A stretch of 59,229 nucleotides of DNA from a virus (IMGVR_UViG_3300043502_000004:1-59229), one strand, 5' to 3'. Positions 4,564 to 49,475 are shown, counted from the stretch's first letter. Numbers and translations are program-made. Notes: generated from the letters alone by a model not told the origin.

Positions 4564-4638
4564 CTCCTCGTAGCTCAACTGGCAGAGCAACCCGTCTCTA
4601 AAACGCGGTGGCTGGGAGTTCGAATCTCCCCGAGGGGT
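4564..4638 (+). tRNA. tRNA with CUA anticodon (amber suppressor candidate)
   Basis: Acceptor CTCCTCG/CGAGGGG, D arm GCTC-AACTGGCA-GAGC, anticodon arm ACCCGT-CTCTAAA-ACG(C)GGT, T arm GGGAG-TTCGAAT-CTCCC. Confidence 0.85.
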
Positions 4639-4639
4639 C

Positions 4640-4948
4640 GTGAAGCAACTCCCGTTAGATCAGCCCACGTACCTGCGGGTGCAGTGGCTCATCCACCAGG
4701 CTCATGTCCTTGGCATCGACCAGGTGGAGCACCTGCACGAGGCTGGGTTGATCGTGACCCCGGCCATGGAGCTGGGCCTGCGAATCAAGGGGATGACCTT
4801 CCTACTGGAAGAGATCAAAGGCTGGCGTCCAGCCGAGTTCATCCGGCGTACGGACAAGTCCGGCTCCGGCTCCACGCCCGCGGATCTGCACCTGCGGATC
4901 TGTGAGTTCATTCAAGATCATATCGATGCGATGAAAGCTGGAGGGTAA
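4640..4948 (+). CDS. hypothetical protein
   Basis: ORF directly after the tRNA; TAATG coupling to next gene. Confidence 0.65.
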   Translation: MKQLPLDQPTYLRVQWLIHQAHVLGIDQVEHLHEAGLIVTPAMELGLRIKGMTFLLEEIKGWRPAEFIRRTDKSGSGSTPADLHLRICEFIQDHIDAMKAGG

Positions 4949-5622
4949 TGGGTATTCCCGTAACGGACCTGGCCTGGATGGCGGGTGTCCTCGATCTGCG
5001 TGGCCGGGTCGTCTACAAGAACAACAAGACCCGCAACCCCAACCACTCCAACCAGGTCACCCTGTATGTGGAGTCGGTCCAGTTGCCGATCGTGCGCCGC
5101 CTGTCCGAGCTGACTGGAACCAATCCAGAGTTCAAGACTCCACGACAGCGGGCCGAAGGATGGTTCCGTCGCAACTGCGACGAACACTGCCCAGAGCCGC
5201 ACGTCCACGTCAATCCCGGCGACTTCGCCGAATCTGGACGCTGGACCGTGTCCGGCTCCGCCATGAGCGTTGTGCTCACCGCCTTGAAACCGTACATGAT
5301 CCAGGACAAGGGTTTCACTGAGGCTGCGGTCTACGGGTTCGAGTACATGACCCTGTGGGGCCGTGGAGCGGCAGCCACCATCACTGCCCTGCGCCGGTTG
5401 CACAACCTGGGCTGGGAGATGCCACCCATTGTCGAAGAGCAGCGGCCAGGCGTATTGACAGAGCTGCCCCCCGACCCCGAACCTGAACCCGAATCGACCC
5501 CGGAACTTGAGGAGACACCTGATGCCGATGCCGAAGAACGGGGAGCCGAGGAAGGTGTACCCGAAGTTCCTCGTGTGCAAGTGGTGCCGCGTAAGCGAAC
5601 ACGCAAAGTGCCCGGGGTGTGA
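4948..5622 (+). CDS. LAGLIDADG-like endonuclease/DNA-binding protein
   Basis: N-terminal DLAWMAGVLDLRGRV motif; RWTVSG...VLTALKPYM; acidic tail. Confidence 0.6.
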   Translation: MGIPVTDLAWMAGVLDLRGRVVYKNNKTRNPNHSNQVTLYVESVQLPIVRRLSELTGTNPEFKTPRQRAEGWFRRNCDEHCPEPHVHVNPGDFAESGRWTVSGSAMSVVLTALKPYMIQDKGFTEAAVYGFEYMTLWGRGAAATITALRRLHNLGWEMPPIVEEQRPGVLTELPPDPEPEPESTPELEETPDADAEERGAEEGVPEVPRVQVVPRKRTRKVPGV

Positions 5623-5674
5623 CTGCTCCCAGGTCAAGCATGACCTGGCCCTGGTCATCGGGGAGGCGGCGTGA
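5522..5674 (+). CDS. small Cys/His zinc-binding protein (50 aa, not in ORF track)
   Basis: SD GAGGAG; MPMPKNGEPRKVYPKFLVCKWCRVSEHAKCPGCDCSQVKHDLALVIGEAA; GTGA coupled to 5671. Confidence 0.6.
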   Translation: MPMPKNGEPRKVYPKFLVCKWCRVSEHAKCPGCDCSQVKHDLALVIGEAA

Positions 5675-5853
5675 TCTGCCAGGCCTGCAAGGACCGGCAG
5701 CACTACCAGTGTCGGTATCCGAGTAGCTGCCCCTGCCAGCACCGCGCACCCGCGCGCACCACCATGAGCCCGGAAGAGTATGCCACTGTCCTGTCCGAGC
5801 TGACCCAGATGGCCCAGGGGGATGGTCTCGGTGACCATGGACCTGACCTGTAG
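5671..5853 (+). CDS. small Cys/His zinc-binding protein
   Basis: CQAC...H..C....CPC.H. Confidence 0.65.
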   Translation: MICQACKDRQHYQCRYPSSCPCQHRAPARTTMSPEEYATVLSELTQMAQGDGLGDHGPDL

Positions 5854-6046
5854 CAACGACGAGTGCTACAGCCGCTACGACGGTCTCAGCTCACAGACCC
5901 GGACCGATGACTCGGCCCGGGTGCACGGATGGCGGGTGTGGAGATCCCAGGGCCTGGACCTGATCCTGTGCCCGTCGTGTATCGGGTACCGGATCCGTCG
6001 TGACAAGGCGCCCGAGCGCCTGGAAGGTGAAGAGCCCTTGTTCTGA
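5822..6046 (+). CDS. small zinc-ribbon protein
   Basis: C....C ... GW ... LCPSC. Confidence 0.6.
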   Translation: MVSVTMDLTCSNDECYSRYDGLSSQTRTDDSARVHGWRVWRSQGLDLILCPSCIGYRIRRDKAPERLEGEEPLF

Positions 6047-6049
6047 ACT

Positions 6050-6096
6050 GAAGCCCCTCGATCGTTGCTGGCTGCCGATCGAGGGGCTTCTTTTTG
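6050..6096 (+). terminator. intrinsic terminator
   Basis: GAAGCCCCTCGATCG/CGATCGAGGGGCTTC stem followed by T run. Confidence 0.85.
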
Positions 6097-6100
6097 CCCG

Positions 6101-6129
6101 TTGACTCCCCGGGGGTCCCTGGGTAGGCT
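6101..6129 (+). promoter_or_regulatory. promoter with CCCCGGGG in spacer
   Basis: TTGACT-17 nt-TAGGCT. Confidence 0.8.
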
Positions 6130-6159
6130 GAAGGGACAAGCAGACAGTGAGGAGTACTA

Positions 6160-6624
6160 ATGAGTCGTAACCTGCACCCGTACAACGTGCCTAACGCTGA
6201 CGTGGCCAAGGTCCTGGAGGACGCCGCCGACCTGTACGAGTCGGAGAAGATCGAATGGTGTACCCGGAGCTGGGCCAAGAACACTGATGGCGCCATCTCG
6301 GCCTGCGCCGAGGGTGCCCTCCTCCTGGCCCGGGGCTACAACTGGGCCACAGTGTTCAACTCCAGTAGGGAACTGTTCAGCACGGACCTACTGGCCCATG
6401 CTGCTCACGATTCGCTCCTGGATCACCTCAACGAGGGGCAAGCGGTGAAGCTGGGCTCGGTCTACCACTGGAATGACAAGGTGGCCGGCGTCCGTACCCG
6501 CGTGGAGTTAGTGGACGGCACGACAGTCCTCTCGCGGATCAGCCCAGCCGAAGCCAAGGCCGAGGTCATCGAGGCCATGAAGGAGACCGCCAAGGATCTC
6601 CGCAACAGTGAAGGAAACTCATGA
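6160..6624 (+). CDS. hypothetical phage protein (DUF6197-like)
   Basis: VLEDAADL...W...CAEGAL...WND...AEVIEAM. Confidence 0.7.
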   Translation: MSRNLHPYNVPNADVAKVLEDAADLYESEKIEWCTRSWAKNTDGAISACAEGALLLARGYNWATVFNSSRELFSTDLLAHAAHDSLLDHLNEGQAVKLGSVYHWNDKVAGVRTRVELVDGTTVLSRISPAEAKAEVIEAMKETAKDLRNSEGNS

Positions 6625-6971
6625 CAGGTAATGAAATCCAGGTCACGATGATGCCGAGCCCGAGTGGGCTCAGTGCACAGGACCTGGTGGCAATGGGCGA
6701 AGACCTGCGGGCCCTGGGGATCCAGGAGTCACGGGCCGTTGTCGCCGAACTACAGGAACTGGCTATGAAGTCCGCCGTCGCCGCCTCTGACGTGTTCATG
6801 AGCCGGCTCCGTCGCGTCGTCGTGGCCAGGGACGCACAGTTGATCCGCGCCGTTGCGGCGCTGCCCCCGCTACAGCTGCCCCGCATACTCATCGGCAACG
6901 TCGTGTACGTCAGTCGGGACAGCGTGCTTGCCCTGATCCAGGCCACCTCGAACCTGGGGGCCACCCAGTGA
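6621..6971 (+). CDS. hypothetical protein
   Basis: Coupled on both sides. Confidence 0.6.
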   Translation: MTGNEIQVTMMPSPSGLSAQDLVAMGEDLRALGIQESRAVVAELQELAMKSAVAASDVFMSRLRRVVVARDAQLIRAVAALPPLQLPRILIGNVVYVSRDSVLALIQATSNLGATQ

Positions 6972-7327
6972 CCGTCAACAAGGAACGAGTCCAGCTGCTC
7001 GTCGATGCCCTGCGGAGCGGGGAGTTCAAGCAGCGCTACGGCGGCCTGAAGGGCATTGCCCATAGTGGTGGCGTCAGTCACTGTTGTCTCGGGGTCGCCA
7101 CCGAGGTGGCGCTGCGCAACGGGGCCGAGAGTCGTGGCAATGCCTGGGACGGGACTGCCCTGCACTGGGAGCTGACTCGGTGGTACGGCTTCGAGAGCGG
7201 CAACCCGATCATTCGCCCAGCTCCGTGTCGGGATGCGGTCGCGGCCAACGACATCTGCAAGCTGGACTTCAACCAGATCGCTGACGCATTCGAGGAGACC
7301 TTCCTCCGTGAAACCAACCCCACCTGA
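6968..7327 (+). CDS. hypothetical phage protein (CCLGV family)
   Basis: ALRSGEFKQ...CCLGVA...ND...F..IAD. Confidence 0.75.
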   Translation: MTVNKERVQLLVDALRSGEFKQRYGGLKGIAHSGGVSHCCLGVATEVALRNGAESRGNAWDGTALHWELTRWYGFESGNPIIRPAPCRDAVAANDICKLDFNQIADAFEETFLRETNPT

Positions 7328-7619
7328 CCACCTGCTCGGCCCTGGACAGACCTGGGTCGTGGTGGAGGCGTCTCGGTGGGCAACGGTGTCCGGTAGGTCC
7401 TGCAACGCCAAGTGGCGGGATGGGGACCTGGAGCCGTGCCTGGAGCCGGCCGTCATCTTCGACCGGGAAACAGTGTTCAGCAACGGGGATGTCCTCTGTG
7501 AACGTCACATGGGATTTCACCGTTGGATCGATGACAACGGGGTGGTCATGCAGTGGAAAGCAGACCCACCCTGGACCTACTCAACGTGGCGGCCCCAGAT
7601 GCCGCCGCGGAAACGATGA
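7308..7619 (+). CDS. Cys-containing hypothetical protein
   Basis: GTG start after GAGGAG; C...C...LCERH. Confidence 0.5.
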   Translation: MKPTPPDHLLGPGQTWVVVEASRWATVSGRSCNAKWRDGDLEPCLEPAVIFDRETVFSNGDVLCERHMGFHRWIDDNGVVMQWKADPPWTYSTWRPQMPPRKR

Positions 7620-7630
7620 AGGAGAACCAG

Positions 7631-8035
7631 ATGGCAAGTAACGCCCCGAACAAGGACCGGCTCCGCATGTGGACCCGGGCCCTCAAGTCGGAACAGTACG
7701 CACAGGGCAAAGGTGAGATGCGAGGGAAAACCGGTTACTGCTGCCTCGGTGTGGCGATGGACATCGCCTTCGCCAACGGGTGCGAGCCCACCGGTTACGA
7801 CAACTGGGGCACCACCTCCCAGCTGCCAGACAGGGTGGCTGACTGGTACGGACTGCCCCGTGGGGACCAGTCCGACCCGCGCCTGTACGCGGTGGGCGCA
7901 GACCGGACCCGGGCCCTCGGCCGTCAGCGCGCATCCTCGCTCAACGACTCCAAGGTCCCGTTCTCGAATATCGCCGACCAGATCATCTACACGTACCAGC
8001 TGGACGGCACTGACAACATCGACGGAGAGTCATAG
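7631..8035 (+). CDS. hypothetical phage protein (CCLGV family, paralog of 6968)
   Basis: ALKSEQYAQG...CCLGVA...LND...F..IAD; SD AAGGAG. Confidence 0.75.
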   Translation: MASNAPNKDRLRMWTRALKSEQYAQGKGEMRGKTGYCCLGVAMDIAFANGCEPTGYDNWGTTSQLPDRVADWYGLPRGDQSDPRLYAVGADRTRALGRQRASSLNDSKVPFSNIADQIIYTYQLDGTDNIDGES

Positions 8036-8037
8036 AT

Positions 8038-8229
8038 ATGGACAAGAAACTGTTGGCGGGGGCCGGAATAGTCGCGGCCGCTGTCGTGGTCGGCTACCTC
8101 ATGCGGGACCGGATCGTCGCCAAAGGCATCGAACTGATGGACAAGGCTGACGGACTGTTCCTGGATGATGATGATGACGATGACGACCTCGACTACGTGG
8201 ACGTCACCTCACGTGGCAAGGAGAACTGA
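8038..8229 (+). CDS. small membrane-anchored acidic protein
   Basis: N-terminal TM helix, poly-Asp tail. Confidence 0.65.
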   Translation: MDKKLLAGAGIVAAAVVVGYLMRDRIVAKGIELMDKADGLFLDDDDDDDDLDYVDVTSRGKEN

Positions 8230-8688
8230 ATGTACAAGCGTCTCGCACTGCTCCTGGCAACTCTCGTTGTCGGATCACTGGGGGCACTGGCTGTCACCGC
8301 CCCTGCGTCGGCTGCACCCAACCCCTGTCCGGCCAAGTTCATCTGCTGGTACGACAGGAGTGACTGGACCAGCTACAACTACATCGTCAACCCTCTGATC
8401 ACAGCGCCGAATACGTGTTTCAACATGGGCACCGATCCGAATGGGGTCAACTGGGATTCGATCGTTGACTCGGTGTGGTGGAACCAGGGCAACGCAGCCC
8501 CCGCCTACGCAGAGTTCTACGAGGGCTTGAACTGCACCATCGCCCCTGTCACCCGAGCCCACGCGTTCGGGTACATCTCTGACCAGATGCAGTCGTGTAC
8601 CGAGGCCGCCATCTACTGGAACGGACCGTGTGCACCGCCAAGCTATGTCATCCACCGCATCCGGTCGTGGGCATTCAGCTGGTCATAA
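8230..8688 (+). CDS. secreted protein, peptidase inhibitor I36/beta-gamma-crystallin-like
   Basis: Signal peptide ending ASA; CPAKFICWYD...WDSIVDSVW...FYEGLNCT. Confidence 0.7.
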   Translation: MYKRLALLLATLVVGSLGALAVTAPASAAPNPCPAKFICWYDRSDWTSYNYIVNPLITAPNTCFNMGTDPNGVNWDSIVDSVWWNQGNAAPAYAEFYEGLNCTIAPVTRAHAFGYISDQMQSCTEAAIYWNGPCAPPSYVIHRIRSWAFSWS

Positions 8689-8695
8689 CAGAACT

Positions 8696-8740
8696 CCAGG
8701 GTCCCGTGCCGGGGATGTGGCACGGGACCCTGGTCTCGTT
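8696..8740 (+). terminator. stem-loop terminator candidate
   Basis: CCAGGGTCCCGTGCC/GGCACGGGACCCTGG with weak T tail. Confidence 0.55.
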
Positions 8741-8755
8741 TCAGAGGAGGAGACA

Positions 8756-9118
8756 GTGGCAGTAGACCCGCACGAGAACGAGGTCAAGGTCGAGATCGAC
8801 ACCGACGTCTACGGTCAGTGGATGGAGGTCCGCGCCGCCATCAAGGAGGCACAGGCGGTGGAGGCAGAGCTACGTGGACAGATCGAGAAGCAGATGGGTA
8901 ACGCCACCGCGGCCACCGTGGGTGGGACCACGGTCATCACCTACCGCCCCCGTAAAGGCTGGAACACCAAGGGTCTCCTACGGGACTATGCGGACCTGTG
9001 TGAGCACTACATGACCACCTCGGTGGACACGCGCCTGGATGTGTACCAGTTCGCCGCCCATCACCCTGACATTGCTGCCCTGTACCAGACCAGGGACTTC
9101 CGGGAGGCTGGCGAGTGA
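8756..9118 (+). CDS. hypothetical protein resembling YqaJ C-terminal helical region
   Basis: SD GAGGAG; IKEAQAVEAELRGQIEKQMGNA...VITYR. Confidence 0.6.
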   Translation: MAVDPHENEVKVEIDTDVYGQWMEVRAAIKEAQAVEAELRGQIEKQMGNATAATVGGTTVITYRPRKGWNTKGLLRDYADLCEHYMTTSVDTRLDVYQFAAHHPDIAALYQTRDFREAGE

Positions 9119-9423
9119 AGATCGATGTCCAGCTCCTCAAAGACCTGATCCATGAGGACTATGACGGTCCCGAGTGGGAGGTCATGGAGGATGTCACGAC
9201 AGGGACGTGGCGCTGGGGGATCGAGAAGCGGATCATCCTGCGCTATGGGCAGGTTGATGAGTACGTGCCTAGCACCTTCTGGGGCTACACCTACCAGGTG
9301 GAGACCAGTAACGAGGACTATCGCCTGACCTTCGTTGACGAAGACATTCAAGTGGAGCTATGGGAAGCAATCGCTGTGCCCGTGGTGAAAATCGAATACA
9401 AGAGGAGAAAAGATGGTAGCTAG
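9115..9423 (+). CDS. hypothetical protein
   Basis: Coupled; RW...FWGYTY. Confidence 0.65.
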   Translation: MKIDVQLLKDLIHEDYDGPEWEVMEDVTTGTWRWGIEKRIILRYGQVDEYVPSTFWGYTYQVETSNEDYRLTFVDEDIQVELWEAIAVPVVKIEYKRRKDGS

Positions 9424-9733
9424 AGTCGCGATCATCTCGATCACCGTGGTGGTGATTGTTGTCATCGCAGCAGTAGTCGGGGTCTTCCTGTCCCGGCGTA
9501 GTGAGCGCATGCAGGCCCGCAAGCACGGATATGCCATGCGGGGTGACCTGAACCGCAGCGAGGAGCAGGCGCTCGTCATTCAGTTGGCCGAGGCCGCCGA
9601 GATCCTGCGGAACCTGGGCAACAACAACCCGGACAACTACGGGGACCCGGAGATCCTGCGGGCTGATACCCGCATCGCCGTGGGCCTGTGGCTGAAGAAG
9701 TACAACAACGTGAAAGAGAAGGTCAGCAAGTGA
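9413..9733 (+). CDS. membrane-anchored protein
   Basis: Hydrophobic N-terminus. Confidence 0.7.
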   Translation: MVARVAIISITVVVIVVIAAVVGVFLSRRSERMQARKHGYAMRGDLNRSEEQALVIQLAEAAEILRNLGNNNPDNYGDPEILRADTRIAVGLWLKKYNNVKEKVSK

Positions 9734-10689
9734 AGAAGATCCTGCTCGCAGGAACAGCGGTAGCTCTCCTGCTCGGGGGCACCGCGTGCTCCTACGGAAA
9801 CCCCGGCGCCGACGAGGTCGGTCTCTACTACGAAGAGGGTTCCCTCGACGGCCAGAACTTCCTGGAGTGTGTGGATCCCGGCGAGTCGGTACAGACCTCG
9901 GACATGTTCGAGGATGCCGACGCCATCTACCCGGTCCCGGCGTCGCTGCGGACCTGGAACATCGCCCCCCAGGGTGGTGACTCCAACGTCCCCATCACGG
10001 TGGCCGCAGCCCCTGAGGCAGGCCAGCCCAGTGGGGTACAGGTCAACCTGTGGGTCCAGTTCGCCTTCAGCATCAACAGCGCCTGTGGCGACGGCAAGGA
10101 CCCCAACAGCCCTGCGGTGCAGTGGTGGGAGAAGGTCGGTCGCCGCTACTACGCTGCCGACACCACCGAAGATAAGACCAAGTGGTGGGCCGCGATGCTC
10201 CAGAACACCATCGTCCCTGCCGCTGAGGCCGTGTCACGCACCAAGGCTCGTGCCTACAGTGCCGACGCCCTGGTGTCCGGTGCAGCCAACGTGGACCTCC
10301 AGAAGGCGGTCTCCGCGGAGCTGCCCGGAGAGTTGAAGCGCCTCGTCGGCGGTGCCTACTTCTGCTCCCCCACCTTCAACCGGGCCAACCCGGACCAGTG
10401 CGGTGAGATTCAGGTGCTGGTGAAGGACGTGGACTACACCAACCCCGCCATCCAGGCGGCTCGCGACGAGAAGCAGAAGGCTATCGAGCTGGCCGCTGCC
10501 AAGGTGGCCGAGGCTCAGGGCAAGGTGGATGCCGCCGCCAAGGAGGCGGAGCTGTACAAGAACCCCAGCTGGGTCCAGTTGGAGCTGGCCAAGATGGAGT
10601 TGCAGGCTGCGGAGGCTCAGGCCGCCGCGTGTGCCAAGGCTGCGTCGTGTGTCATCTCCGGTGGAGGTGTCTTGGTTGGCGCGAGGTAA
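9730..10689 (+). CDS. SPFH/band-7 domain lipoprotein
   Basis: Lipobox-like GTAC; DEVGLYY..G, R.W, alanine-rich coiled-coil C-terminus. Confidence 0.75.
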   Translation: MKKILLAGTAVALLLGGTACSYGNPGADEVGLYYEEGSLDGQNFLECVDPGESVQTSDMFEDADAIYPVPASLRTWNIAPQGGDSNVPITVAAAPEAGQPSGVQVNLWVQFAFSINSACGDGKDPNSPAVQWWEKVGRRYYAADTTEDKTKWWAAMLQNTIVPAAEAVSRTKARAYSADALVSGAANVDLQKAVSAELPGELKRLVGGAYFCSPTFNRANPDQCGEIQVLVKDVDYTNPAIQAARDEKQKAIELAAAKVAEAQGKVDAAAKEAELYKNPSWVQLELAKMELQAAEAQAAACAKAASCVISGGGVLVGAR

Positions 10690-10876
10690 GAAGAAGCGAC
10701 GGCCCTACCTTCCGATCTTGTTCACGGCGATCTGTCTGATATGGACCTTCGTCACGGTGATGGATGTGAGACGGGGCAACGCCTCGTACTCAGCCGTGGA
10801 CGGGTTCGCGCTGGGAGTTCAGTTCGTGACCGCGTTCATGCTCTGGAGATGGTGGCTCCGCAGACGGAAGACCTGA
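10667..10876 (+). CDS. small two-TM membrane protein
   Basis: Two hydrophobic segments. Confidence 0.55.
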   Translation: MSWLARGKKKRRPYLPILFTAICLIWTFVTVMDVRRGNASYSAVDGFALGVQFVTAFMLWRWWLRRRKT

Positions 10877-10891
10877 CCCATGCTGTAGGGC

Positions 10892-11344
10892 ATGGAGATT
10901 GAGGTTCGCTGGCTCCCGGCACAGCAGGGATCCCTGAAGCACATCGGGCGGGGACGCCTGATCCATACCAATAAGGATGAGATCGAGGACTGGCGCTCAG
11001 CTGTCCGCAACCGGGTGGATGACTACCGGGAACGCAACCCAGGACATGGGTTGCCCTACGAAGGGGCCGTTGTGATGAGACTGGTGGTCTCACTGCGACG
11101 GCCCCCCTCTGTCTCTAGGAACAAGCGCCCATACCCCTCAGTGGCACCCGATCTGGACAAGCTGATGCGGGCCGTAGGTGACGCGTTACAGAAATGCGGG
11201 GTCCTGGTGGATGACGCCCAGATAGTTGATCTCACCCGCCTCGCCAAGGTGTACTGCAACGAGGACCCGGAGTCCCTGGAAGTTCCAGGGGCCAGGATCG
11301 TGGTGCTGCCCATGGCACCGTTAGAGGAACTGACGAAGGGATGA
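10892..11344 (+). CDS. rusA: RusA-family Holliday junction resolvase
   Basis: PAQQGS, PDLDKL.RAV.DAL, DDAQIV. Confidence 0.9.
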   Translation: MEIEVRWLPAQQGSLKHIGRGRLIHTNKDEIEDWRSAVRNRVDDYRERNPGHGLPYEGAVVMRLVVSLRRPPSVSRNKRPYPSVAPDLDKLMRAVGDALQKCGVLVDDAQIVDLTRLAKVYCNEDPESLEVPGARIVVLPMAPLEELTKG

Positions 11345-11655
11345 CAGTGACGAGCGATCACATTGCGGGGTTCAGCATGGACCTGCCCGACTGGGCCCGG
11401 ATGATCCTTGACGACCGGGAGATGCGGCGCGGCGACGGCTGGAAGATACCCCTGGCTGTCGAGGTGCCTGTGAAGCGGCCCAGTCACGAGGAGGTGCAGC
11501 AGAAGGTCATCAACTTCAAGCTGGTGGCCGACGCACTGGAGCTGCTCCTGTCGGTGTGGCCCGAGATCCCGGGGGCGTCGGTGACGCTGACCCCGGCCCA
11601 GCAGGATGAGCTGAAACGCATCATCCTGGCCCTGCCAGCATCGGTGGCCCTATGA
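11341..11655 (+). CDS. hypothetical protein
   Basis: Coupled on both sides. Confidence 0.6.
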   Translation: MTVTSDHIAGFSMDLPDWARMILDDREMRRGDGWKIPLAVEVPVKRPSHEEVQQKVINFKLVADALELLLSVWPEIPGASVTLTPAQQDELKRIILALPASVAL

Positions 11656-11969
11656 GTACCGACCTGCTCCCCGAGACGACCGGTGACGACCTCCTGGACT
11701 TCCTGGAGATCATGAAGAACACGCCACTACGGTCCATGGCAGACATCGCCGCGGATCGTGAACCCGAGTTCGAGATCCCGGTCCTGGCTGTAGGGATGCA
11801 GGCAGACACCGTTGAAATCCCTGTTACGCGCTCCGCTCCCCGGCACCTGTCCACGTACCGTGGACCCAGGGTCTGGCGGCACCCGCTGACCTGGTTGAAG
11901 TGGAACTTCGGCTGGATCTACTGGGGGGTCGATGAACAAAACCGACACAGATCCCATCGGGTGGTGTAG
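11652..11969 (+). CDS. hypothetical protein
   Basis: ATGA coupling. Confidence 0.55.
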   Translation: MSTDLLPETTGDDLLDFLEIMKNTPLRSMADIAADREPEFEIPVLAVGMQADTVEIPVTRSAPRHLSTYRGPRVWRHPLTWLKWNFGWIYWGVDEQNRHRSHRVV

Positions 11970-12168
11970 TACATGCGAAAAGTGGCTGTACACGGACAAG
12001 GCTCGGGCCAAGAGGGTGGGGCGTCGGCACCACCCCCGGAAGCCGGCCTACATCTGCCCGGAGACCAGGGGGACAGTGCAGGAGCTGTACCACGTGGGTT
12101 CACTACCCCAGTTGGTAGTTCAGGGGTTCCTGACCCGCGACCAGCTTCGCCGCAAGCGCCGCTCCTGA
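11932..12168 (+). CDS. small zinc-binding protein
   Basis: CSTCEK..Y...KA ... AYICP...YH. Confidence 0.6.
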   Translation: MNKTDTDPIGWCSTCEKWLYTDKARAKRVGRRHHPRKPAYICPETRGTVQELYHVGSLPQLVVQGFLTRDQLRRKRRS

Positions 12169-12521
12169 GGTGCAACAACTGTGGGATCCTCGGGCACCTG
12201 CCGCGGGCCTGCCCCAACTACGGGTGGTACTACCCGGCGCCTGGGAAGAACCGCCTGGACTACGAAAAGGACAGGCAGCGGGTCCAGGACCTGATCGCCT
12301 CCGACATCATCTCCGAGCACGAGGTGCATGAGGATGACGAGGATCCCATCGTGTTTCAGGGTGCCCGACCTAGTGCGGACCGCAAGACCAAGGCCCTGAT
12401 GCTGCCCTGTCCGCGCTGTGAGCAGCCGCCGGGGAGCAAGTGCAAGACGGCAGCCGGGGACTACACGGAGCTGCACAAGGCACGGCTCGACGCTGTTGAC
12501 TCCCCGTCCCCGGGGAGCTAG
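12165..12521 (+). CDS. zinc-knuckle plus zinc-finger protein (start uncertain)
   Basis: CNNCGILGHLPRAC (CCHC) and CPRC...C...H. Confidence 0.6.
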   Translation: MRCNNCGILGHLPRACPNYGWYYPAPGKNRLDYEKDRQRVQDLIASDIISEHEVHEDDEDPIVFQGARPSADRKTKALMLPCPRCEQPPGSKCKTAAGDYTELHKARLDAVDSPSPGS

Positions 12522-12524
12522 GCT
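12496..12524 (+). promoter_or_regulatory. promoter with CCCCGGGG in spacer, upstream of the RNA cluster
   Basis: TTGACT-17 nt-TAGGCT. Confidence 0.8.
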
Positions 12525-12599
12525 GTAGCTACCTCGGGTTTGAGAAGGCTGGAGGAAGGCTCCCCCAGGGGCTGGTCACACAAAACCTGGGGGAGTCAC

Positions 12600-12750
12600 G
12601 GACTGGTAGCTCAACAGGTAGAGCAGACTGACCAACGCCCGCAGGACCGTGGTTCTAGAGCCACAGGGGCGCTGAGACTGGCACAGATATCGGTGACCAG
12701 GAAGGCGGCGTTGAATCGGTTGGTTGCAGGTTCGAATCCTGCTCAGCCCA
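12600..12750 (+). ncRNA. tRNA-like RNA with 84-nt structured domain replacing the anticodon loop
   Basis: Acceptor GGACTGG/TCAGCCC, D arm GCTC-AACAGGTA-GAGC, stem GACTGA/TCGGTT, T arm GCAGG-TTCGAAT-CCTGC; insert 12632-12715. Confidence 0.8.
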
Positions 12751-12852
12751 CGAGGGACCTACGACCAGCGACGACCGACAAGTGTTGTTGGCTAGTGAAC
12801 TCATGAGTGCCAGAACCAGGAGCTTCCCCCGTCGTCTCCTGGTTCTGGCCGG

Positions 12853-12924
12853 TGCGGGATCGTCTAACAGAAGGACGCTGTGCTCATAACTCAGAGAATC
12901 CGGGTGCGAATCCCGGTCCCGCCT
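12853..12924 (+). tRNA. tRNA with CAU anticodon (Met/fMet or Ile2), atypical
   Basis: GCGGGA/TCCCGC acceptor, CTGTG-CTCATAA-CTCAG, CCGGG-TGCGAAT-CCCGG. Confidence 0.75.
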
Positions 12925-12950
12925 CTACGTAAGACGCTCAGCGAATGAAT

Positions 12951-13020
12951 GGGTCGGTAGCTTAACGGGCAGAGTCCGGCGTTTAGGCCGGGGATGTCGG
13001 TTCGAATCCGACACGATCCA
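12951..13020 (+). tRNA. tRNA-like gene with 6-nt anticodon loop GTTTAG (identity undetermined)
   Basis: GGGTCG/CGATCC, GCTT/GAGT D stem, CCGGC-GTTTAG-GCCGG, GTCGG-TTCGAAT-CCGAC. Confidence 0.7.
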
Positions 13021-13055
13021 CGAGGCCGCGCGGCCGGACAATGAGAGGAGGCTCC

Positions 13056-13226
13056 ATGGAAACAGTGCGCTATCTGGTCACCGGGTTCCCGGGGGCCTTC
13101 AAGGAATGCCACCGCTGGCTGGTCAAGGTGACCTACGGGGTGTGGCCACTCATGCTGTGTCCCGGCCATCGGGCTTGGGCAGAGGTCCAGTACCTGCGAC
13201 AGTTGAGCGGTCCCGAGGGACGATGA
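13056..13226 (+). CDS. hypothetical protein
   Basis: SD GAGGAGG before ATG 13056. Confidence 0.45.
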   Translation: METVRYLVTGFPGAFKECHRWLVKVTYGVWPLMLCPGHRAWAEVQYLRQLSGPEGR

Positions 13227-13431
13227 TCTCGTTCTTCTGAAGGACCATGATCAGGTCATTCTGGTACTGGAGCATGTCGGTACGGTTCTGGTTGACGAGG
13301 GCATGTACTTCACCGAGGCCATCTTTCACCTTGGTGACGTCTCGTTTCAGAATCAGGACCACGGCAGTAGCAATAGACGTCACAAGGGTGGCGACGGCAC
13401 CAAGGATTAGGGCGATGCCCTCAGCAGTCAT
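13150..13431 (-). CDS. membrane protein, possible holin/lysis accessory
   Basis: N-terminal TM helix, then EVHALVN coiled region; leaderless start. Confidence 0.6.
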   Translation of the reverse strand: MTAEGIALILGAVATLVTSIATAVVLILKRDVTKVKDGLGEVHALVNQNRTDMLQYQNDLIMVLQKNEIIVPRDRSTVAGTGPLPKPDGRDTA

Positions 13432-38500: not shown

Positions 38501-41500
38501 CCTTCTCCCGATTGGCCAGCTCCCGACCTGCTATCGCCTTGGCGATGTTCTGGATGAGAGTGTCTTTGTCGTCACCCTCGATGTCGCCGAGCCCTTCCTG
38601 GCGCGCGGCTTCCTTCAACGAGTCGACGTCGACCCGGTCCAGGGCTGCCTTCTCGGGGCCGTCGAGCTTGACCTCCAACTCCTGGCGGGTGACCGGGGCT
38701 TCGTCGCGAGCATGGTCCCGTAGGAACTTGGCTGCCTTCTTCTGACTGGTGATCTTGTCCTGTAGTTCGGCTCGCCGGGCATGGATAGCATCGGCGACAC
38801 CGCTCTCCTCGTCCCGGTCCTCCGGGGCCATGCCTTCAAGCTGGGCGCCCAGGTCACTGATCTCCTCCTCATTGAAGGAGATCTCGGACTGGATGCGGCG
38901 TACACCCTCCTCCTGGCTGATCTTCCCGGAGGCGATGTCATCCCGGATCTCAGTAAGAGACGGATCGTCGGCGAACCCTTCCCCGTCCCAGGCTTCCTGG
39001 AACGCAGACTTCCGTGGCTCGCTGTCCAGCTTCTCGGCAGCGCGGGGACCTTCGACCGAGCCTTCCGGGACCCGCTTGAGGGCACGGGCCTTGGCCCGCT
39101 TGGCTGGCGGTGCCGTGGGGGCAGCGTCCCGGGCGATCTCCTCCGGGGTCGGTGCCCGGTCCGGAACTACCGCAGCGGGGGCAGTCTTCTTGACCGGCGT
39201 GGGCGCCTCGACCGGGACGGCCTCCAACTCCTGGCGCAGGCGATCATCACTGCTCTCCCGGCCACCGGCGCGACGGTGCCGCTCGATGGCCTCTTTCAGC
39301 TGCGCCTTGGTGGCCGACTTCTTGACGTCCACGCCTTCGTCCGTGGCGACCTTGGCCAGCTCGGTACGGAGCATCTTGTCGAGAGTCTTAGGTGCAGAAT
39401 CCGGCTCAGCCCCCACACTCGGAGCAACTTTCTTGACGGCACGCTTGGCTGGGGCCCGGGCGGGACCCTCCTCTACGCCGGAGATGACCTGGGCCCGCAT
39501 GCCCATGGTGTCGGCCAAGGTCTGTACCAGGTTGGCGTCCTGGCGGTTGCCACCGGCCCGCAGTTCCTTGGAATACTTCTCCAGGTCGTCACGGGACCCA
39601 CGCAGCTCGGCCGCGTCCATCTCATCGGTGTCGTCGATGATGCCTTGAACCTTGCTGGCGGCAGCAGGGTTCTCTGGCGCCACCCACTTCTGGGCACTCA
39701 GCTCTTGGCGCAGGCTCCGGGCCGGGGTCTCGCCACCGGCACCTTCGGGCACGCCACGGATGTCAGCCAGGACGGCGTCTTTGACTTTGTCCTTGGTGAC
39801 CCCCCGCTTCGGGAGTTCCAGTTCCCGTGCCTCAGCCAGGGCCTTGAGGTCGGCCAGGGTGTGGTTATCCAGCAGCTTGCGGGCCTCCTGGTCCGACTCC
39901 GCTGCCTCCAGGTGCGGGATCATCTTCTTCGGACTGACCGGGGCGATCTTCCCGGCCTTGGGGACCTCGTCACCGAGCAACGCCGACTGGAGCTGGCGCT
40001 TGTTCATGGTGGAGAAACCGCGGATCTTCTTCTCCCGCGCCTGGGCCCGGAGGTCGGCGACCTTGTCCGGGAGTCCGGCTTCAGCCACCCGTGCCTTGAA
40101 GGCCTCTTCAGCATCGTCCACAGGGGACGGTGCCGCCTTGGCAGGGGCAGCCTTCTTGGCAGCCTTCTTGGCTACCTTCTTGGCGGGTGCGGCAGGCACC
40201 TCAGGGACGGCCTTCTTGGCTACCTGAGCAGCCTCCGCCTCCCGGCGAGCTGCACCGTGGCCACTGATGGCGTCCGAGTCCAGCTCCCGGCCTTTACGGA
40301 ACACGATGGCCTTACGGAGTTCCGCCTTGGTGGCACGGGCCCGGACCGGGGCCTCCATGTGGTCGGCCAGGGCCTTCAGTTCGGCCCCGGTCATCCCTTC
40401 CAGGTGTGCGTCCGCTTCCTCGCGGGTCTTGGCGGCCTGGATGTCGGCGGCGATGTCGGCAGGTTTGCGACCTTTCCCACTGCGGGGGGCCGGGGCCTTG
40501 GGCGTGGCTTCCCGCTTGGTGGATGGCGCCCCTGGCGTGACTCTGGGAGCCTTCTTGGCAGCCGGGGTCGGTGTAGGGCTGGTGCCATCACCTGTCCCTT
40601 TAGCCTCCCGACCCCGGCGCTGCAACCCGTACTTCTCTGCGATCAGGTCAGCCAGCTGCTCCTGGGCCTGGATGTTGCGGTCCAGGGTGTCTTTCTTCTC
40701 GGCATGGTCGGCACTGGCCGCCTGCCGCTTGTTCTCCTCGATGTCCGTGTCGAGTTCCCGCAGCACATCACCGGGGTCCCGCTTGCCTCGGGACAGGTCG
40801 CTGTGGGCTTTGTTCCATTCCGAGCGCTGCTTGCCGGCGGTGGGCACAGACAGGTCCCGGGCCGCCTCCTGGAACTCCAGTGGCGTGGGCGGCGTCGGTG
40901 CCGCTGGGGTGGCGGCCTCCTTTGCCGCGGTGGCCTTAGCTTCCTCACCCATCTGGGCAACTTCGGAAGCAGAGCGTCCCTCGGGACTGCCAGGGCCGAC
41001 TGCGTTGGAGTGAACCGGCTCCCGCCGCTCGGGAACACCGGCCGCTGGGGGGGCGGGTGTCTGCGGCGAAACAGGGGCGGCGGGAGCCGGGGTCTGGGTG
41101 GTGGGTGGCGGCGGGGTGCCCTGCACCTGCCGCTGATGAACCAGGGTGGCAGCTTCGTTCTGCTGCTGCTCCCGCTGGGCGATCTTGAGCCGAGACTCCC
41201 CGGACATCTGCGGGGAGATTCGAGCTTCCCGCTGCTCCGGGGTGAGGGCAGCGCCACGGGTGCCATGGGTGCGGTCGTCAGCGACAGCAGTCGCACCCTT
41301 GGTGCGGGCACCACTGCCGGCGATGGCCAGCATGTACCAGCCACCACGGCCGTCCGATTCCACCTTGGTGACGACGAGGGGCTGGTCCCGGTCGAAGATG
41401 ACCGCCCGGTCGTTGGGGCTACGGCCTCCGTAGGCGACCCGGGTGCCTTTCGGCACGGCCACCCGCAGCGTGACCGAGCCCGGCGGGTGGGACAGCTCAG

Positions 41501-41975
41501 AGCCCAGATTGGTGGCGCTGTACCCGGCGTCAGCGATCTCCAGACCGATGAGGTCTTCCAGGCCACCGTCCTCCATGGTCGCCTGTTGTGGACTGAGTCC
41601 GAATGCCTCCACTGGCACGGTCTGGGACACGATCAGGTCGTCGGTGGTCTCCACCATGTTGCGGTCCATCATGTCCACGAACTTCTTCGTGGTGGGGTCC
41701 GTCTTGCCGGCCTGGAGTGCCCCGTTAGCCTCGTCCCAGTCCATGTGCAGACGCTGCAACTCAGGGGTGGTCCATGGGGCCTTGCGACGATTGAACGCGT
41801 ACTGCGACGCCTGCTGGTCGGACTGGAACGAGTGTGGCTGGAACCTGTCTAGGAAGTTAGACAGGGCATCGACGACCCCAGCGGCCATCTTCCACTTCTT
41901 GCGGAAGCGCCCATGCCGGTCACGCGGGTGGAGCATTTCCTCCCGCGTGCCCCATGCGGAGCCGATTCCAGCCAC
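35598..41975 (-). CDS. 2125-aa multidomain putative internal virion protein (ART-like domain, HeH/SAP-like repeats, PAKK linkers)
   Basis: HPRDRHGRF N-terminus; GYSATN...LRVAVPKGT; about 7 L..M...ELK.LA...K..L repeats. Confidence 0.8.
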   Translation of the reverse strand: MAGIGSAWGTREEMLHPRDRHGRFRKKWKMAAGVVDALSNFLDRFQPHSFQSDQQASQYAFNRRKAPWTTPELQRLHMDWDEANGALQAGKTDPTTKKFVDMMDRNMVETTDDLIVSQTVPVEAFGLSPQQATMEDGGLEDLIGLEIADAGYSATNLGSELSHPPGSVTLRVAVPKGTRVAYGGRSPNDRAVIFDRDQPLVVTKVESDGRGGWYMLAIAGSGARTKGATAVADDRTHGTRGAALTPEQREARISPQMSGESRLKIAQREQQQNEAATLVHQRQVQGTPPPPTTQTPAPAAPVSPQTPAPPAAGVPERREPVHSNAVGPGSPEGRSASEVAQMGEEAKATAAKEAATPAAPTPPTPLEFQEAARDLSVPTAGKQRSEWNKAHSDLSRGKRDPGDVLRELDTDIEENKRQAASADHAEKKDTLDRNIQAQEQLADLIAEKYGLQRRGREAKGTGDGTSPTPTPAAKKAPRVTPGAPSTKREATPKAPAPRSGKGRKPADIAADIQAAKTREEADAHLEGMTGAELKALADHMEAPVRARATKAELRKAIVFRKGRELDSDAISGHGAARREAEAAQVAKKAVPEVPAAPAKKVAKKAAKKAAPAKAAPSPVDDAEEAFKARVAEAGLPDKVADLRAQAREKKIRGFSTMNKRQLQSALLGDEVPKAGKIAPVSPKKMIPHLEAAESDQEARKLLDNHTLADLKALAEARELELPKRGVTKDKVKDAVLADIRGVPEGAGGETPARSLRQELSAQKWVAPENPAAASKVQGIIDDTDEMDAAELRGSRDDLEKYSKELRAGGNRQDANLVQTLADTMGMRAQVISGVEEGPARAPAKRAVKKVAPSVGAEPDSAPKTLDKMLRTELAKVATDEGVDVKKSATKAQLKEAIERHRRAGGRESSDDRLRQELEAVPVEAPTPVKKTAPAAVVPDRAPTPEEIARDAAPTAPPAKRAKARALKRVPEGSVEGPRAAEKLDSEPRKSAFQEAWDGEGFADDPSLTEIRDDIASGKISQEEGVRRIQSEISFNEEEISDLGAQLEGMAPEDRDEESGVADAIHARRAELQDKITSQKKAAKFLRDHARDEAPVTRQELEVKLDGPEKAALDRVDVDSLKEAARQEGLGDIEGDDKDTLIQNIAKAIAGRELANREKERTARDRQARIDESGKVAEALSNLDQMAQNDGSDKALQAGIRRLPAADRERLTKALGDRDQFRRELDSITKGRDLSRFGTVGETVPYDPQKHDVVGDIAPGSPVLITRAGHDSHLGGGDRVTFKARAIPDEGAKIPAKTPEAPAAPAKKAAKFLPPLASGQQRKSATNVEVGDIVQRAGARNAPPARVTKVERGPGGIDITLEDGRKYNNNPNSAYWMGGDAPAPAKKLSTPGEVSTRLNDIENPPSREEAKALLEGLNGRDIRPMAKELHIPTSGKTNDQIRDEIIEATSGRLLDAKATRGFGGATPTSVPVRTGDITPIVPAKKVAKAAVPAKAAPAPAPVVDLDNPTKHDAEVIGTGLDLDAKGEDKQWLAVVQKDLDAGIDGRQIADGLRRGADSERTLHNIEAETGGGTPDTGRAARINRMELMADRLEGVRPIPKPEAPKKAAADVVRGFDTHLAAQAASRARADLRSGKSHTEVATSLRTAATQVGSRDHDVTPMSRVGDPTASEKSFMKRGDARMLRELAAEIQAEGVAQRAEARATKKATTPAKKARPSVTDDAVATLLMDRIAERDPAVAKAVLAEISPADRKELDAARERDTARKAARAAVPKKRTAAEMRRARSASESEGVPVDEILARWDGQKQDRKNLTGPVGEMISAQLDDAMARLQAANTEAEERTALASLLRPELAQLAARLGLKSDRAKSVMINEIKDRVKGREAPGASAERAVPKVEAPSAGAGIDETVPLKPFPHDDNMRMHADSPTMGLAFAYEKAGRNGSANRMANLRARATTPGTEDRLTPQQVVDELKAIRAQETDPKFQRMLDRAIEANDAPMTPIPDLPPDLPASLRGLMEQLHAIPYARKGKGQSAAIGVISGPSLVDQLAEVFWDAYRGSRGERRQNPQDRIRNLLRGKTHEMNEASFRIWEMTKLLESDEPLDVDAGRKVAQLVKELRDWERSHWPKQ

Positions 41976-47493: not shown

Positions 47494-47526
47494 GCCTTTA
47501 CTCTAAAGGCCCGTCGATCACAAGGG

Positions 47527-48966
47527 CTAGAACCCGAGTGAATCCAGCCCGTAGAGGTCCTGACTCAACTGGAAGTCGTAGTCGTAGGCATTCCCGACCC
47601 GCATCCGCTTCTTCTCCCCGGACATCAGCTTCAGGCAGGCGTGGACCATGGCGTCCATGCGGTCCGGTGACTCCTGGGTGGAGGCCGGATCGAACCGGAC
47701 CATCTCCTTCTCCAGCTCGTCGTGATACCCGACCATGTGCAGGCGCCCCTGCTGATTACGCATTGCCACCGGCTCGGCCCGCGTCTTCTTGCCGTGCTTC
47801 GCGTGCACGGATTCCAGGGGGGCGGAGGTGTGCTTCGGGAACATCCCCTTGTCCCGGCATTCCTTGTACGCGTCTTCGAGGACTTCCCGCAGGAACCTTT
47901 TACCGAGGTTCTCTTCGTACAGAACCAGGTCGGCCCGGTATTCGGCACAGGCCCGCCACACGGCCAGCGCAGCCTGCCTGCCTGATTCCGGCACGGAACA
48001 ATCAGCCAGTATGTATAGCTCGTCTTCAGTATCTCGACAGGCCACGACGATGCCGAACTTCGCATCGTTTCCGGTGAGGTTCGGGTCACAGCCCACCACC
48101 GTGGAGACGATGGCCTCCGGTACCTGATCCGAGGCCACCCGGTTCTTGGCGATGTCCGTGCGCCGGAACAGGCCACCGATACCGAGGTCCAGTAGCTTCC
48201 CGTACAGTTCCTGGTCGCCCAGCGTGGTGCCGTCGTACCGGAGCTTCATCTCGGCCAGGGCCTGGGTGCTCAGGTTGGACGCATTGTCGAACGTGGATCC
48301 CACAATGATGTGGATGGTGCCGTCAGTACGCGTAACCCACTCTTCCAGCAGAGCAATGGGCTTGGGTGTAGTGGTGACGAATGCCCGAGGATGATCTCCC
48401 ACAAGGTCAGCTCGCAGGGAAGGCAGCAGACCTTCGTACCAGGTCTCGTAAGGCTTGATCCACTTGGCCATCTCATCGCACAGGATGCCGGCGGCGTTGT
48501 ATCCACGTCCGGTGTCTGGATCGTCGGCCCCCTCCAGGTAGATCTTGGCCCCGTCCGGGAACAGGACCATGGGCCGCGGGCTCTGCTTGTACCGGTGGTC
48601 GATCTTGCGACGACGCAGCACGTTGAGCAGACCGCTGGGGCCTTCGGCGTTGATGGTCCTGGCGTCGGCCAGGGTGTCCGCCACCACCAGCCACTCGGTG
48701 GGGACCCCGTGTCGGTCAAACGGGTGCCGTAACACCCTGTCCACGATCCACTCCGAACCGGCACGACTCTTCCCGAATCCACGCCCGGCCAGGGCCAGGC
48801 AGATCAGCCACGGCAGGTTGGTCGGCGGTACCTGCTCTGGCCGGGAAGTCCACCACCACTCGCCGCGTTGTATCTCTTCGAGGACGGTGTCGGGCAGGGA
48901 GGAGACCCAGGCGACCTTCTGGTCACTGGGCAGGAGTGCGACACGTTCCTTGAGGGATAGCCCCAC
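47527..48966 (-). CDS. terminase large subunit
   Basis: AGRGFGKSR Walker A, LCDE Walker B, TTTP, GCDP, SPDRMDA. Confidence 0.95.
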   Translation of the reverse strand: MGLSLKERVALLPSDQKVAWVSSLPDTVLEEIQRGEWWWTSRPEQVPPTNLPWLICLALAGRGFGKSRAGSEWIVDRVLRHPFDRHGVPTEWLVVADTLADARTINAEGPSGLLNVLRRRKIDHRYKQSPRPMVLFPDGAKIYLEGADDPDTGRGYNAAGILCDEMAKWIKPYETWYEGLLPSLRADLVGDHPRAFVTTTPKPIALLEEWVTRTDGTIHIIVGSTFDNASNLSTQALAEMKLRYDGTTLGDQELYGKLLDLGIGGLFRRTDIAKNRVASDQVPEAIVSTVVGCDPNLTGNDAKFGIVVACRDTEDELYILADCSVPESGRQAALAVWRACAEYRADLVLYEENLGKRFLREVLEDAYKECRDKGMFPKHTSAPLESVHAKHGKKTRAEPVAMRNQQGRLHMVGYHDELEKEMVRFDPASTQESPDRMDAMVHACLKLMSGEKKRMRVGNAYDYDFQLSQDLYGLDSLGF

Positions 48967-49014
48967 GTGATCATGCTACGTCTACCCGGAGCAACCGGAA
49001 CTTCTGGACACAGC

Positions 49015-49044
49015 TTGCGCCTACCCCCCGGGGAGGGGTATCGT
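49015..49044 (+). promoter_or_regulatory. promoter with CCCCGGGG in spacer
   Basis: TTGCGC-18 nt-TATCGT, divergent from the terminase gene. Confidence 0.6.
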
Positions 49045-49121
49045 TCTGGTAGCGAGAAGCACGGTATCTAGACCGTCCCGTGTGTTCCGTCGCAGTGGGG
49101 GGTCTGCTCCCCCACTGTCAA

Positions 49122-49195
49122 GCCCGGTTGGTGTAGGTATGCACAGTGGCTCTCAAAAAGCACAAGACGTGGTTCAACTCCACGGCTGGGCACCA
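49122..49195 (+). tRNA. atypical tRNA (best fold CAA anticodon, bulged stem, short variable loop)
   Basis: GCCCGGT/GCTGGGC-A-CCA, GTGT/GCAC, GTG(G)CT-CTCAAAA-AGCAC, CGTGG-TTCAACT-CCACG. Confidence 0.75.
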
Positions 49196-49392
49196 GTGCC
49201 AGACGTACGGGCTGGCTTTAAGCTTTGACAGGTCCACAGCACCGTCTCATGTCGCCCGAACCGGGGTCGGTCCAGGGTTCGGGAGGCAAGTGCTGCTCCG
49301 TGGGGATCTTGGTGATCTCCCTAGGACCACTGATCACCTGTGTGGGGTCGGGCTTTCACCTCTCTGGGGCCCGGCCCCCACGAACTTCACGG

Positions 49393-49475
49393 GTCAGAGT
49401 GGCGGAACGGTAGACGCGCCAGCTTGAGGTGCTGGTGTCCTGACGGACGTGGGGGTTCGAGTCCCCCCTTTGACA
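49393..49475 (+). tRNA. tRNA-Leu(GAG)
   Basis: GTCAGAG/CTTTGAC-A, CCAGC-TTGAGGT-GCTGG, variable arm GTCC-TGAC-GGAC, GGGGG-TTCGAGT-CCCCC. Confidence 0.95.

Follow-up and report, generated by a model that had tools for sequence, protein, structure and literature searches.

The genome of an uncultured soil phage carries six tRNA-like genes, and in five of them the standard anticodon arm is lost. The phage sequence, IMGVR_UViG_3300043502_000004, is an entire IMG/VR virus record of 59,229 bases (completeness estimate 94%) and was analysed over its full length, here called the window. The six genes, t1 to t6 in order of position, all lie on the + strand. In alignments, folds and our reading of the sequence, t6 alone has a 5-bp anticodon stem with a 7-nt loop; the acceptor, D and T stems are intact in every gene except t3. 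Judged by their closest resemblances, the five odd genes would belong to different tRNA families: Arg-like (t1), Lys-like (t2), Met- or initiator-like (t3), Ala-type (t4) and Arg-like (t5). Comparison with the relative G001 reveals purifying selection on t4, t5 and t6, and across the set conserved odd genes stand beside t2 and t3, which are replaced in the manner of cassettes. The usual view of phage tRNA genes is that they act as codon supplements or stand in for tRNAs that host defences have cut. The present phage retains tRNA bodies while giving up normal anticodon arms. Tentatively, and with less than even confidence, we read t1-t5 as expressed tRNA mimics rather than decoders.

ARAGORN and the Rfam tRNA model (RF00005; gathering cut-off 29 bits) each recovered five of the genes, four of them in common. 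ARAGORN called 4564-4639 as 'Pyl' (cta), 12853-12925 as Met (cat), 12951-13021 as '???' (a two-base anticodon tt, corresponding to a 6-nt loop), 49122-49195 as Leu (caa) and 49393-49477 as Leu (gag). It did not call t2 at 12600 and reported no tmRNA in the window. RF00005 matched t6 (49393) with 53.6 bits, t3 (12853) with 46.6, t1 (4564) with 43.9, t4 (12951) with 38.7 and t2 (12600-12750) with 37.4, at E-values between 9e-9 and 2.8e-4 in the window, so that five of the six genes lie above the cut-off and t5 fails. At 49122, Rfam finds no match to t5 even at E<=1, and its support comes from ARAGORN and from conservation. At the same limit, the Rfam search of the window returned no ribozyme, intron or Y RNA. 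A strict T-arm scan (5-bp stem, G53-C61, TTYRANN loop) was passed by five genes; the sixth, t3, has a paired CCGGG/CCCGG stem. Minimum-free-energy folds give a cloverleaf for t1, t4, t5 and t6. ARAGORN, Rfam and folds thus agree with the sequence-only reading, made before this analysis, that five anticodon arms deviate over paired T stems and that Leu(GAG) is the sole canonical gene. One small correction is that t3 and t4 deviate elsewhere too.

The odd anatomy is not an assembly artefact, because these sequences recur in contigs and runs obtained independently: t5/t6 in L002, L003 and G001, t1 in L057, and positions 12673-12927 in run X5. Parts of the region 4400-13100 are contained in 23 sequencing runs. 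Within the covered parts of the four runs examined, the tRNA-like genes show no variant letters and no alternative alleles.

The gene t4 (12951-13020, +; ARAGORN, Rfam and fold) is a tRNA-Ala-type scaffold with a G+C-rich anticodon stem and a 6-nt loop, GUUUAG. As the arm region lacks 3 nt relative to a standard tRNA and ends in this 6-nt loop, t4 is unable to decode normally. Its D arm is complete. The T arm has the same sequence as that of the Issimir phage tRNA-Ala(TGC) and the acceptor is similar, the anticodon arm alone being replaced by a shorter hairpin. The best 12 of 235 matched records in a BLAST search are all annotated as tRNA-Ala, with weak matches (E = 0.6). G3.U70 and A73 are present in both the window and G001, which gives t4 the identity elements of tRNA-Ala in combination with a non-Ala anticodon. 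AlaRS recognises G3.U70 and not the anticodon, so t4 is plausibly charged with alanine.

In t1 (4564-4638, +; ARAGORN, Rfam and fold) the nominal anticodon CUA lies in a 7-nt loop, CUCUAAA, with C32, U33, A37 and A38. The D/T elbow is canonical, the anticodon stem pairs only with one C bulged on its 3' strand, and CCA is not encoded. The nearest relative, with 80.6% identity across 70 nt, is the Cluster C mycobacteriophage tRNA-Arg(CCT), in which anticodon arm and variable region are of equal length; six substitutions in the arm re-register the stem. ARAGORN labels t1 tRNA-Pyl because of the CUA anticodon alone. In tRNA-Pyl, CUA is accompanied by an anticodon stem of 6 bp, a variable loop of 3 nt and a small D loop that lacks GG, and a single base separates the acceptor and D stems. 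We rejected the label for t1, which has an 8-nt D loop with GG, two bases (UA) after the acceptor stem, a standard T loop, UUCGAAU, and a variable loop of 4-5 nt. The discriminator of t1 (4638) almost touches the GTG of the next open reading frame (ORF) at 4640, and its acceptor 3' strand, GAGGGG, is the only Shine-Dalgarno-like run of that ORF. A pattern search for the t1 geometry found G001 only among viral contigs and a single metagenome contig, L057 (99.7% identity to the window). Besides G001, neither the t1 nor the t4 geometry occurs in 2.9 million viral contigs, and that of t1 is found in none of 185,579 genomes. Scans of viral contigs with the proteins of the neighbouring ORFs 11973 and 4640 also gave G001 as the only relative.

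The acceptor (with a single A3.C70 mismatch), D and T arms of t2 (12600-12750, +; Rfam and fold) are canonical. Between its anticodon-stem strands lie 86 nt (12631-12716), compared with 7 in a tRNA; an insert had been noted at this gene before, at a length of 84 nt that we correct here. In the Rfam alignment, 93 nt stand where the model has 15 positions. The extension is predicted to prolong the anticodon stem as a 7-bp helix and to continue into two hairpins, and t2 is thus devoid of an anticodon loop. The 3' part of t2 matches a Thermus phage tRNA-Lys. We rejected a repeated mobile element, the insert being single copy and without relatives, and an intron-containing tRNA, as intron families are unmatched at E<=1; at 86 nt the insert is presumably far below group I intron length. 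A bulge-helix-bulge was also rejected, the 7-bp helix following instead a 1-nt by 2-nt internal loop.

The next gene, t3 (12853-12924, +; ARAGORN, Rfam and alignment), has the anticodon CAU, a U30.U40 mismatch in the anticodon stem, a U1.C72 mismatch, the T loop UGCGAAU and, in the D loop, a single G instead of GG. Three features mark bacterial initiator tRNAs: an anticodon stem with three G-C pairs in a row at its base, the pair A11-U24, and a mismatch between positions 1 and 72. In t3, two of the three G-C pairs are present with the U.U between them and positions 11 and 24 are U11-A24; only U1.C72 fits, and t3 was rejected as an initiator. Both genes differ in G001. At the t2 site, G001 has a tRNA-like remnant of ~55 nt (acceptor, hairpin and T arm). 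At the t3 site, it shares the acceptor stem and flanks and has a different, canonical, initiator-like tRNA-Met body (52 bits) with all three initiator features, namely the three G-C pairs at the stem base, A11-U24 and the 1.72 mismatch. The flanks of t2 and t3 are 95-99% identical between the two genomes while the bodies are exchanged, the pattern expected of cassette recombination. A CGAGG trailer follows directly 3' of t2 (12750-12756), of t4 (13020-13026) and of both G001 replacement alleles (L024), which suggests a shared cassette border or processing signal.

In t5 (49122-49195, +), called by ARAGORN only, the loop CUCAAAA presents the anticodon CAA, and a G bulges from the 5' strand of the anticodon stem; the variable loop measures 4 nt, and the gene has A73 and encodes CCA. 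A covariance model built from t5 (R1) matches a tRNA-Arg(CCG) of the distant relative G005 (31.8 bits) and a mini tRNA-like RNA of L010 (30.1 bits). The last gene, t6 (49393-49477, +), is a canonical class II tRNA-Leu(GAG); CUC is the second most used Leu codon of the phage (345/1456).

Relatives of the window were sought via the large terminase (TerL), which gave 17 loci, and only G001 spans all the tRNA-like loci. G001 measures 57.9 kb; its aligned blocks are 75-94% identical to the window (~90% overall). Third codon positions in this comparison served as the neutral yardstick and differ at 83/467 sites in TerL (17.8%) and at 23/148 in gene 11973 (15.5%). Two of 77 positions are changed in t5 (binomial P = 4e-5) and three of 70 in t4 (P = 0.003), so that the two genes change 4-7 times less than third codon positions. 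The changed positions (7, 16 and 17 in t4; 17 and 26 in t5) are all unpaired and variable, and both odd arms are untouched. By hand calculation, the chance that all five changes fall at unpaired variable positions is ~0.43^5 = 0.015. In t6, 13 of 85 positions differ, 12 of them in the variable arm, which is still paired through compensatory change. The t5-t6 spacer, with 34 differences in 194 positions, diverges at nearly the third-codon rate, and the locus is therefore not simply young. At least two of the odd genes thus look kept by selection.

The proposal that the distortions are selected, and not the outcome of random decay, accordingly holds for part of the set. It fits t4, t5 and the ordinary t6, and the arms of t4 and t5 are unchanged in G001; changes spread over all arms, which had been named as the sign of the opposite, are not seen in these two genes. 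It does not extend to t2 and t3, whose alleles are replaced in G001, or to t1, which is identical in G001 and L057 (0/75 changes) and whose conservation is uninformative because the flanks are 97-98% identical. Two more distant relatives, L004 and L005 (84-85% TerL identity), are without t5 and t6. Viral, metagenome and genome collections and four sequencing runs yielded no further informative relatives.

The acceptor, T and D parts of a tRNA are read by RNase P, RNase Z, the CCA-adding enzyme and T-loop modifiers, and by AlaRS too. Those parts are what t1-t5 would retain for tRNA-processing enzymes (the D part of t3 excepted), while their remodelled anticodon arms would let them decode poorly or not at all. 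We infer expression, processing, charging and a decoy role for these RNAs: the mimics would be cut from transcripts like tRNAs, t4 would probably be charged with alanine, and the products would occupy host tRNA-binding factors, such as tRNA-directed defence nucleases or RNA quality-control machinery. In its fullest form, this account holds that the lineage keeps 'anticodon-less' mimics on Ala, Arg, Lys and Met scaffolds, processed and in the case of t4 alanine-charged, as decoys or sponges for tRNA-directed immunity or RNA surveillance. They would be strain-exchanged cassettes and a Ro60-independent counterpart of the Y-RNA/tRNA-like arrays of sister phages. We regard the full account as possible, though with all its parts rather unlikely. 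If the RNAs are stable and bind host factors, phage tRNA mimicry would extend beyond Y RNAs. The genes would then offer a simple system for roles of the tRNA top half outside translation, comprising a scaffold that accepts alanine but has no usable anticodon, and a tRNA whose arm is 86 nt long.

By analogy, the nearest parallel to the proposed mimics is offered by the tRNA-like modules of Y RNAs in sister phages, which lie at the same locus beside the phages' own Ro60. The contigs L006-L010 (73-78% TerL identity) have the same intergenic site as the t5-t6 locus; they share its promoter-like block, and HTH, PD-(D/E)XK and prim-pol genes follow downstream as they do in the window. At this site, each contig carries 3-4 Y-RNA-like modules whose 5' and 3' ends are paired. 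Some of the modules enclose a permuted tRNA-like domain, and the YrlA model (RF02553) gives weak matches of 31-32 bits, below its 69-bit cut-off. Stand-alone tRNA-like RNAs between the modules have anticodon arms with a C.C mismatch, a tetraloop or an insert of ~45 nt. A TROVE/Ro60 protein is encoded by L006 (Pfam, 59.5 bits), and tblastn finds proteins with ~68% identity to it in L008 and L009. The arrays (L006:3687-5924, L008:3249-6423 and L009:685-3510) correspond to 48967-49576 of the window; modules and tRNA-like RNAs precede the TROVE gene behind TTGACA...TATGGT, directly upstream of terminase. Large canonical tRNA arrays also exist in the wider clade, as L016/G005 (95.8 kb, 59% TerL identity) has 36 tRNA-model matches, mostly high-scoring. 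Just upstream of terminase in L012, positions 3598-3657 match tRNA model positions 7-64 with 47.9 bits; D, anticodon and T arms are covered and the acceptor stem is absent.

Bacteria and some mycobacteriophages are known to encode Y RNAs with tRNA-like domains next to Ro60, and Chen et al. 2014 describe a Y RNA 'anticodon arm' with a 6-nt loop (PMC4201824), a feature that t4 shares. Like the YrlA-type Y RNAs (Ro60/Rsr-bound; RF02553), the window RNAs retain tRNA D, T and acceptor features and, on the mimic reading, would not decode. In contrast to YrlA, they have normal tRNA topology with open acceptor ends, and they lack the Ro-binding 5'/3' stem motif, a YrlA match and an adjoining Ro60. The tRNA-like domain of tmRNA resembles t4 in joining a G3.U70 acceptor and a normal T arm to no usable anticodon arm, whereas t4 has a full D arm and neither an mRNA-like frame nor pseudoknots. 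In the titles, abstract openings and passages that we consulted, phage tRNA-like genes with these arm geometries were not met, and titles and abstract openings gave no relevant case of a six-nucleotide anticodon loop.

Several observations weigh against the mimic reading. The window has no RF02553 match at E<=1. Neither the window nor G001 has a Ro-binding motif (searched to 3 mismatches in the window) or a TROVE/Ro60 gene (best tblastn E = 0.056, in the window). The regular 7-nt loop of t1, with U33 and A37, could decode UAG, and the loop of t5 is of a perfect Leu(CAA) type. The comparison of odd arms depends on one informative relative, G001. The terminase promoter region near t5 is conserved as well (4/155 nt differ), so the conservation of t5 could be at the level of DNA, and the 4.3% divergence of t4 is not clearly below the 7% of the intergenic DNA after it. 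A 151-nt metatranscriptome contig covers 12870-13020 and may reflect DNA carry-over. No phage tRNA decoy was found among the titles and abstract openings that our literature searches listed.

A possible, if on balance doubtful, alternative is that part of the odd set still decodes despite its noncanonical arms, t1 as an amber suppressor, t5 as a UUG reader and t3 as a Met/Ile reader. The stem of t1 would then consist of six pairs and a bulge and the RNA would probably be charged by GlnRS via U35, while t5 would be class-I-shaped. Decoding would be supplied or altered in infection, possibly resisting host anticodon nucleases. This explanation draws on the loop of t1, with C32, U33, CUA, A37 and A38 in seven nucleotides under a canonical elbow, and on the conserved t5 with its CUCAAAA loop, A73 and encoded CCA, UUG being in use (118 times in 17,833 codons). 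It has to contend with the geometry of t4 and t2, which is incompatible with any known decoding, with scores of 37-47 bits from the Rfam tRNA model for t1-t4 and a miss for t5, and with the absence from the Arg-like t1 of C35, an ArgRS identity element.

The stop codons of the phage argue further against decoding by t1. Under the standard code, 80 genes (codon-bias gene set, table 11) cover 90% of the window, and they end in TGA (40), TAG (23) or TAA (17); genes ending in TAG or TAA include TerL and neighbours of the portal gene. Of 64 stops aligned to G001, 59 are unchanged and five are swapped for another stop, with no exchange for a sense codon. The TAG between the in-frame ORFs 11652-11969 and 11973-12521 is TGA in G001, where t1 is identical. 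Read-through would add at least 30 residues to 9 of the 23 TAG genes, and there is no excess of nearby back-up stops. We rejected the long extensions as a signal, as they arise only where the next gene shares the frame, at about chance frequency. Since the phage uses the standard code, suppressors would be without a visible job. The sequence-only reading had also speculated that three of the RNAs could address UAG, UAA and UGA. This idea is not supported: t1 alone places a stop-reading anticodon (CUA) in a loop of 7 nt that has U33 and a purine at position 37, the UUA of t4 sits in a 6-nt loop, t5 reads CAA, no UCA anticodon exists among the six genes, and all three stops are in use. As a set of stop-codon readers, the five odd RNAs are unlikely. 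If t1 were nevertheless a real amber suppressor in a standard-code, high-G+C phage, it would bear on how recoding begins.

Phage tRNAs that escape host anticodon nucleases offer a second comparison, and the work of Azam et al. 2024 (PMC11555353) is said to belong to this group. The window genes resemble such tRNAs in being found in an actinophage-like genome and in having their differences concentrated in the anticodon arm. As described by van den Berg et al. 2023, substitutions in the anticodon loop allow phage tRNAs to escape host anticodon nucleases, among them mycobacteriophage tRNAs that evade VapC-type nucleases; these escapers keep a standard cloverleaf and the host anticodon and carry point changes in the loop (PMC10264068). 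In the window, by contrast, the arms have bulges, a mismatch, a 6-nt loop and an 86-nt extension, and the anticodons do not match the scaffold family. The suppressor tRNAs of recoded phages share with t1 the anticodon CUA. Portions of the preprint by Borges et al. note that suppressor tRNAs occur occasionally in standard-code phages, that noncanonical suppressors escaping detection are to be expected, and that recoded phages have low G+C and in-frame TAG/TGA in late genes (bioRxiv 10.1101/2021.08.26.457843). The window phage differs in its 62% G+C, in being 90% coding under the standard code and in its 23 TAG stops.

The mimic reading must also be weighed against the view that the five are decaying or chimeric tRNA genes from cassette recombination, whose conservation is hitch-hiking on nearby regulatory DNA. 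We consider this unlikely, while giving it some credit because t2 and t3 turn over and L004 and L005 have lost t5 and t6. The bit scores are low, the swap of t2 and t3 took place between ~90%-identical genomes with flanks still 99% identical, the conservation of t1 is uninformative, and the t1 and t4 geometries are as rare as described above. Decay does not, however, account for the reduced rate of change in t4 and t5 and its restriction to unpaired variable sites, for T, D and acceptor stems that are intact except in t3, or for a neighbouring spacer that diverges at the neutral rate.

It is improbable that the folds serve mainly as RNA-processing signals, with RNase P and RNase Z cuts separating or stabilising neighbouring transcripts and, at t1, releasing an almost leaderless mRNA of ORF 4640: this would suit the position of t1 (discriminator 4638, GTG 4640, GAGGGG supplied by the acceptor strand), the CGAGG trailer after t2, t4 and both G001 alleles, and, because RNase P and RNase Z need only the tRNA top half, free variation of the anticodon arm, but t5 and t6 have no ORF downstream and the conserved anticodon arms of t4 and t5 would be superfluous for cleavage.

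The DNA around the tRNA-like genes contains further conserved elements. In the intergenic block between t2 and t3 (12751-12852, +; defined by comparison with G001), one of 102 positions differs from G001, compared with 15.5% at third codon positions (P = 6.5e-7). The neighbouring genes differ by 8-15%, and the block contains a perfect 14-bp hairpin, GCCAGAACCAGGAG...CTCCTGGTTCTGGC. A 24-nt word from it has no match among metagenome contigs, and megablast of positions 12000-14000 against 50,697 phage records gave no match. Upstream of t5 lies a promoter-like block (49015-49044, +), TTGCGC and TATCGT separated by 18 nt, which aligns with the TTGACA...TATGGT preceding the Y-RNA arrays of L006-L010. 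The consensus scan missed it, and at the three tRNA-like loci neither the promoter nor the terminator consensus scans yielded anything useful. Between t5 and t6, a structured spacer RNA (49264-49386, +) has 41 predicted pairs, seven with compensatory change (RNAalifold on the window, G001, L004 and L005). It is present in L004 and L005 without t5 and t6, and may therefore be an unnamed small RNA. After t6, a G+C-rich hairpin between an A run and a T run (49493-49533, strand not assigned; found by reading the sequence) looks like a two-way terminator, though the simple terminator scan did not call it. The t5-spacer-t6 unit is thus framed by a promoter-like block and a terminator-like hairpin.

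An ORF of 185 residues at 2328-2885 (+) encodes a HAD-like phosphatase, which had been described as a HAD protein of an RNA-repair-associated type. It has an N-terminal DIDGV motif, but Pfam HAD_SAK_2 scores 22.6 bits (E = 1.4e-4), below its cut-off of 27.5 bits, and no PHROG match and no PDB relative were found for it. Among the ~47 window proteins scanned, with the remaining small ORFs outside the scan, there is no RNA ligase, kinase, RtcB or Ro60, nor any integrase, aminoacyl-tRNA synthetase or release factor. The connection between the HAD protein and the tRNA-like genes is weak.

The window is an uncultured, actinophage-like siphovirus from soil, assigned in these terms because its portal relatives are so distant. 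Cultured Arthrobacter and Actinoplanes phages have portals only ~32% identical to its own, identity to the portals of Curtobacterium, Microbacterium and Gordonia phages is lower still, and all 877 matched records lie below 60%. A TerL search of genome contigs found no prophage relative, so that the host is inferred solely from these distant portal matches to actinophages. G+C varies from 60 to 67% along the sequence. The phage encodes a large terminase, portal, MuF-like protein, major head protein, tape measure, prim-pol/D5 helicase and RusA, together with a PD-(D/E)XK nuclease, a ParB-like protein and HTH regulators. A frameshift between two MuF-like ORFs at 44591 was considered and rejected in favour of an ordinary TAATG overlap. 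A 2,125-residue ORF (35598-41975) with almost no family matches adjoins the head genes; the tape measure is encoded instead at 26767-28845.

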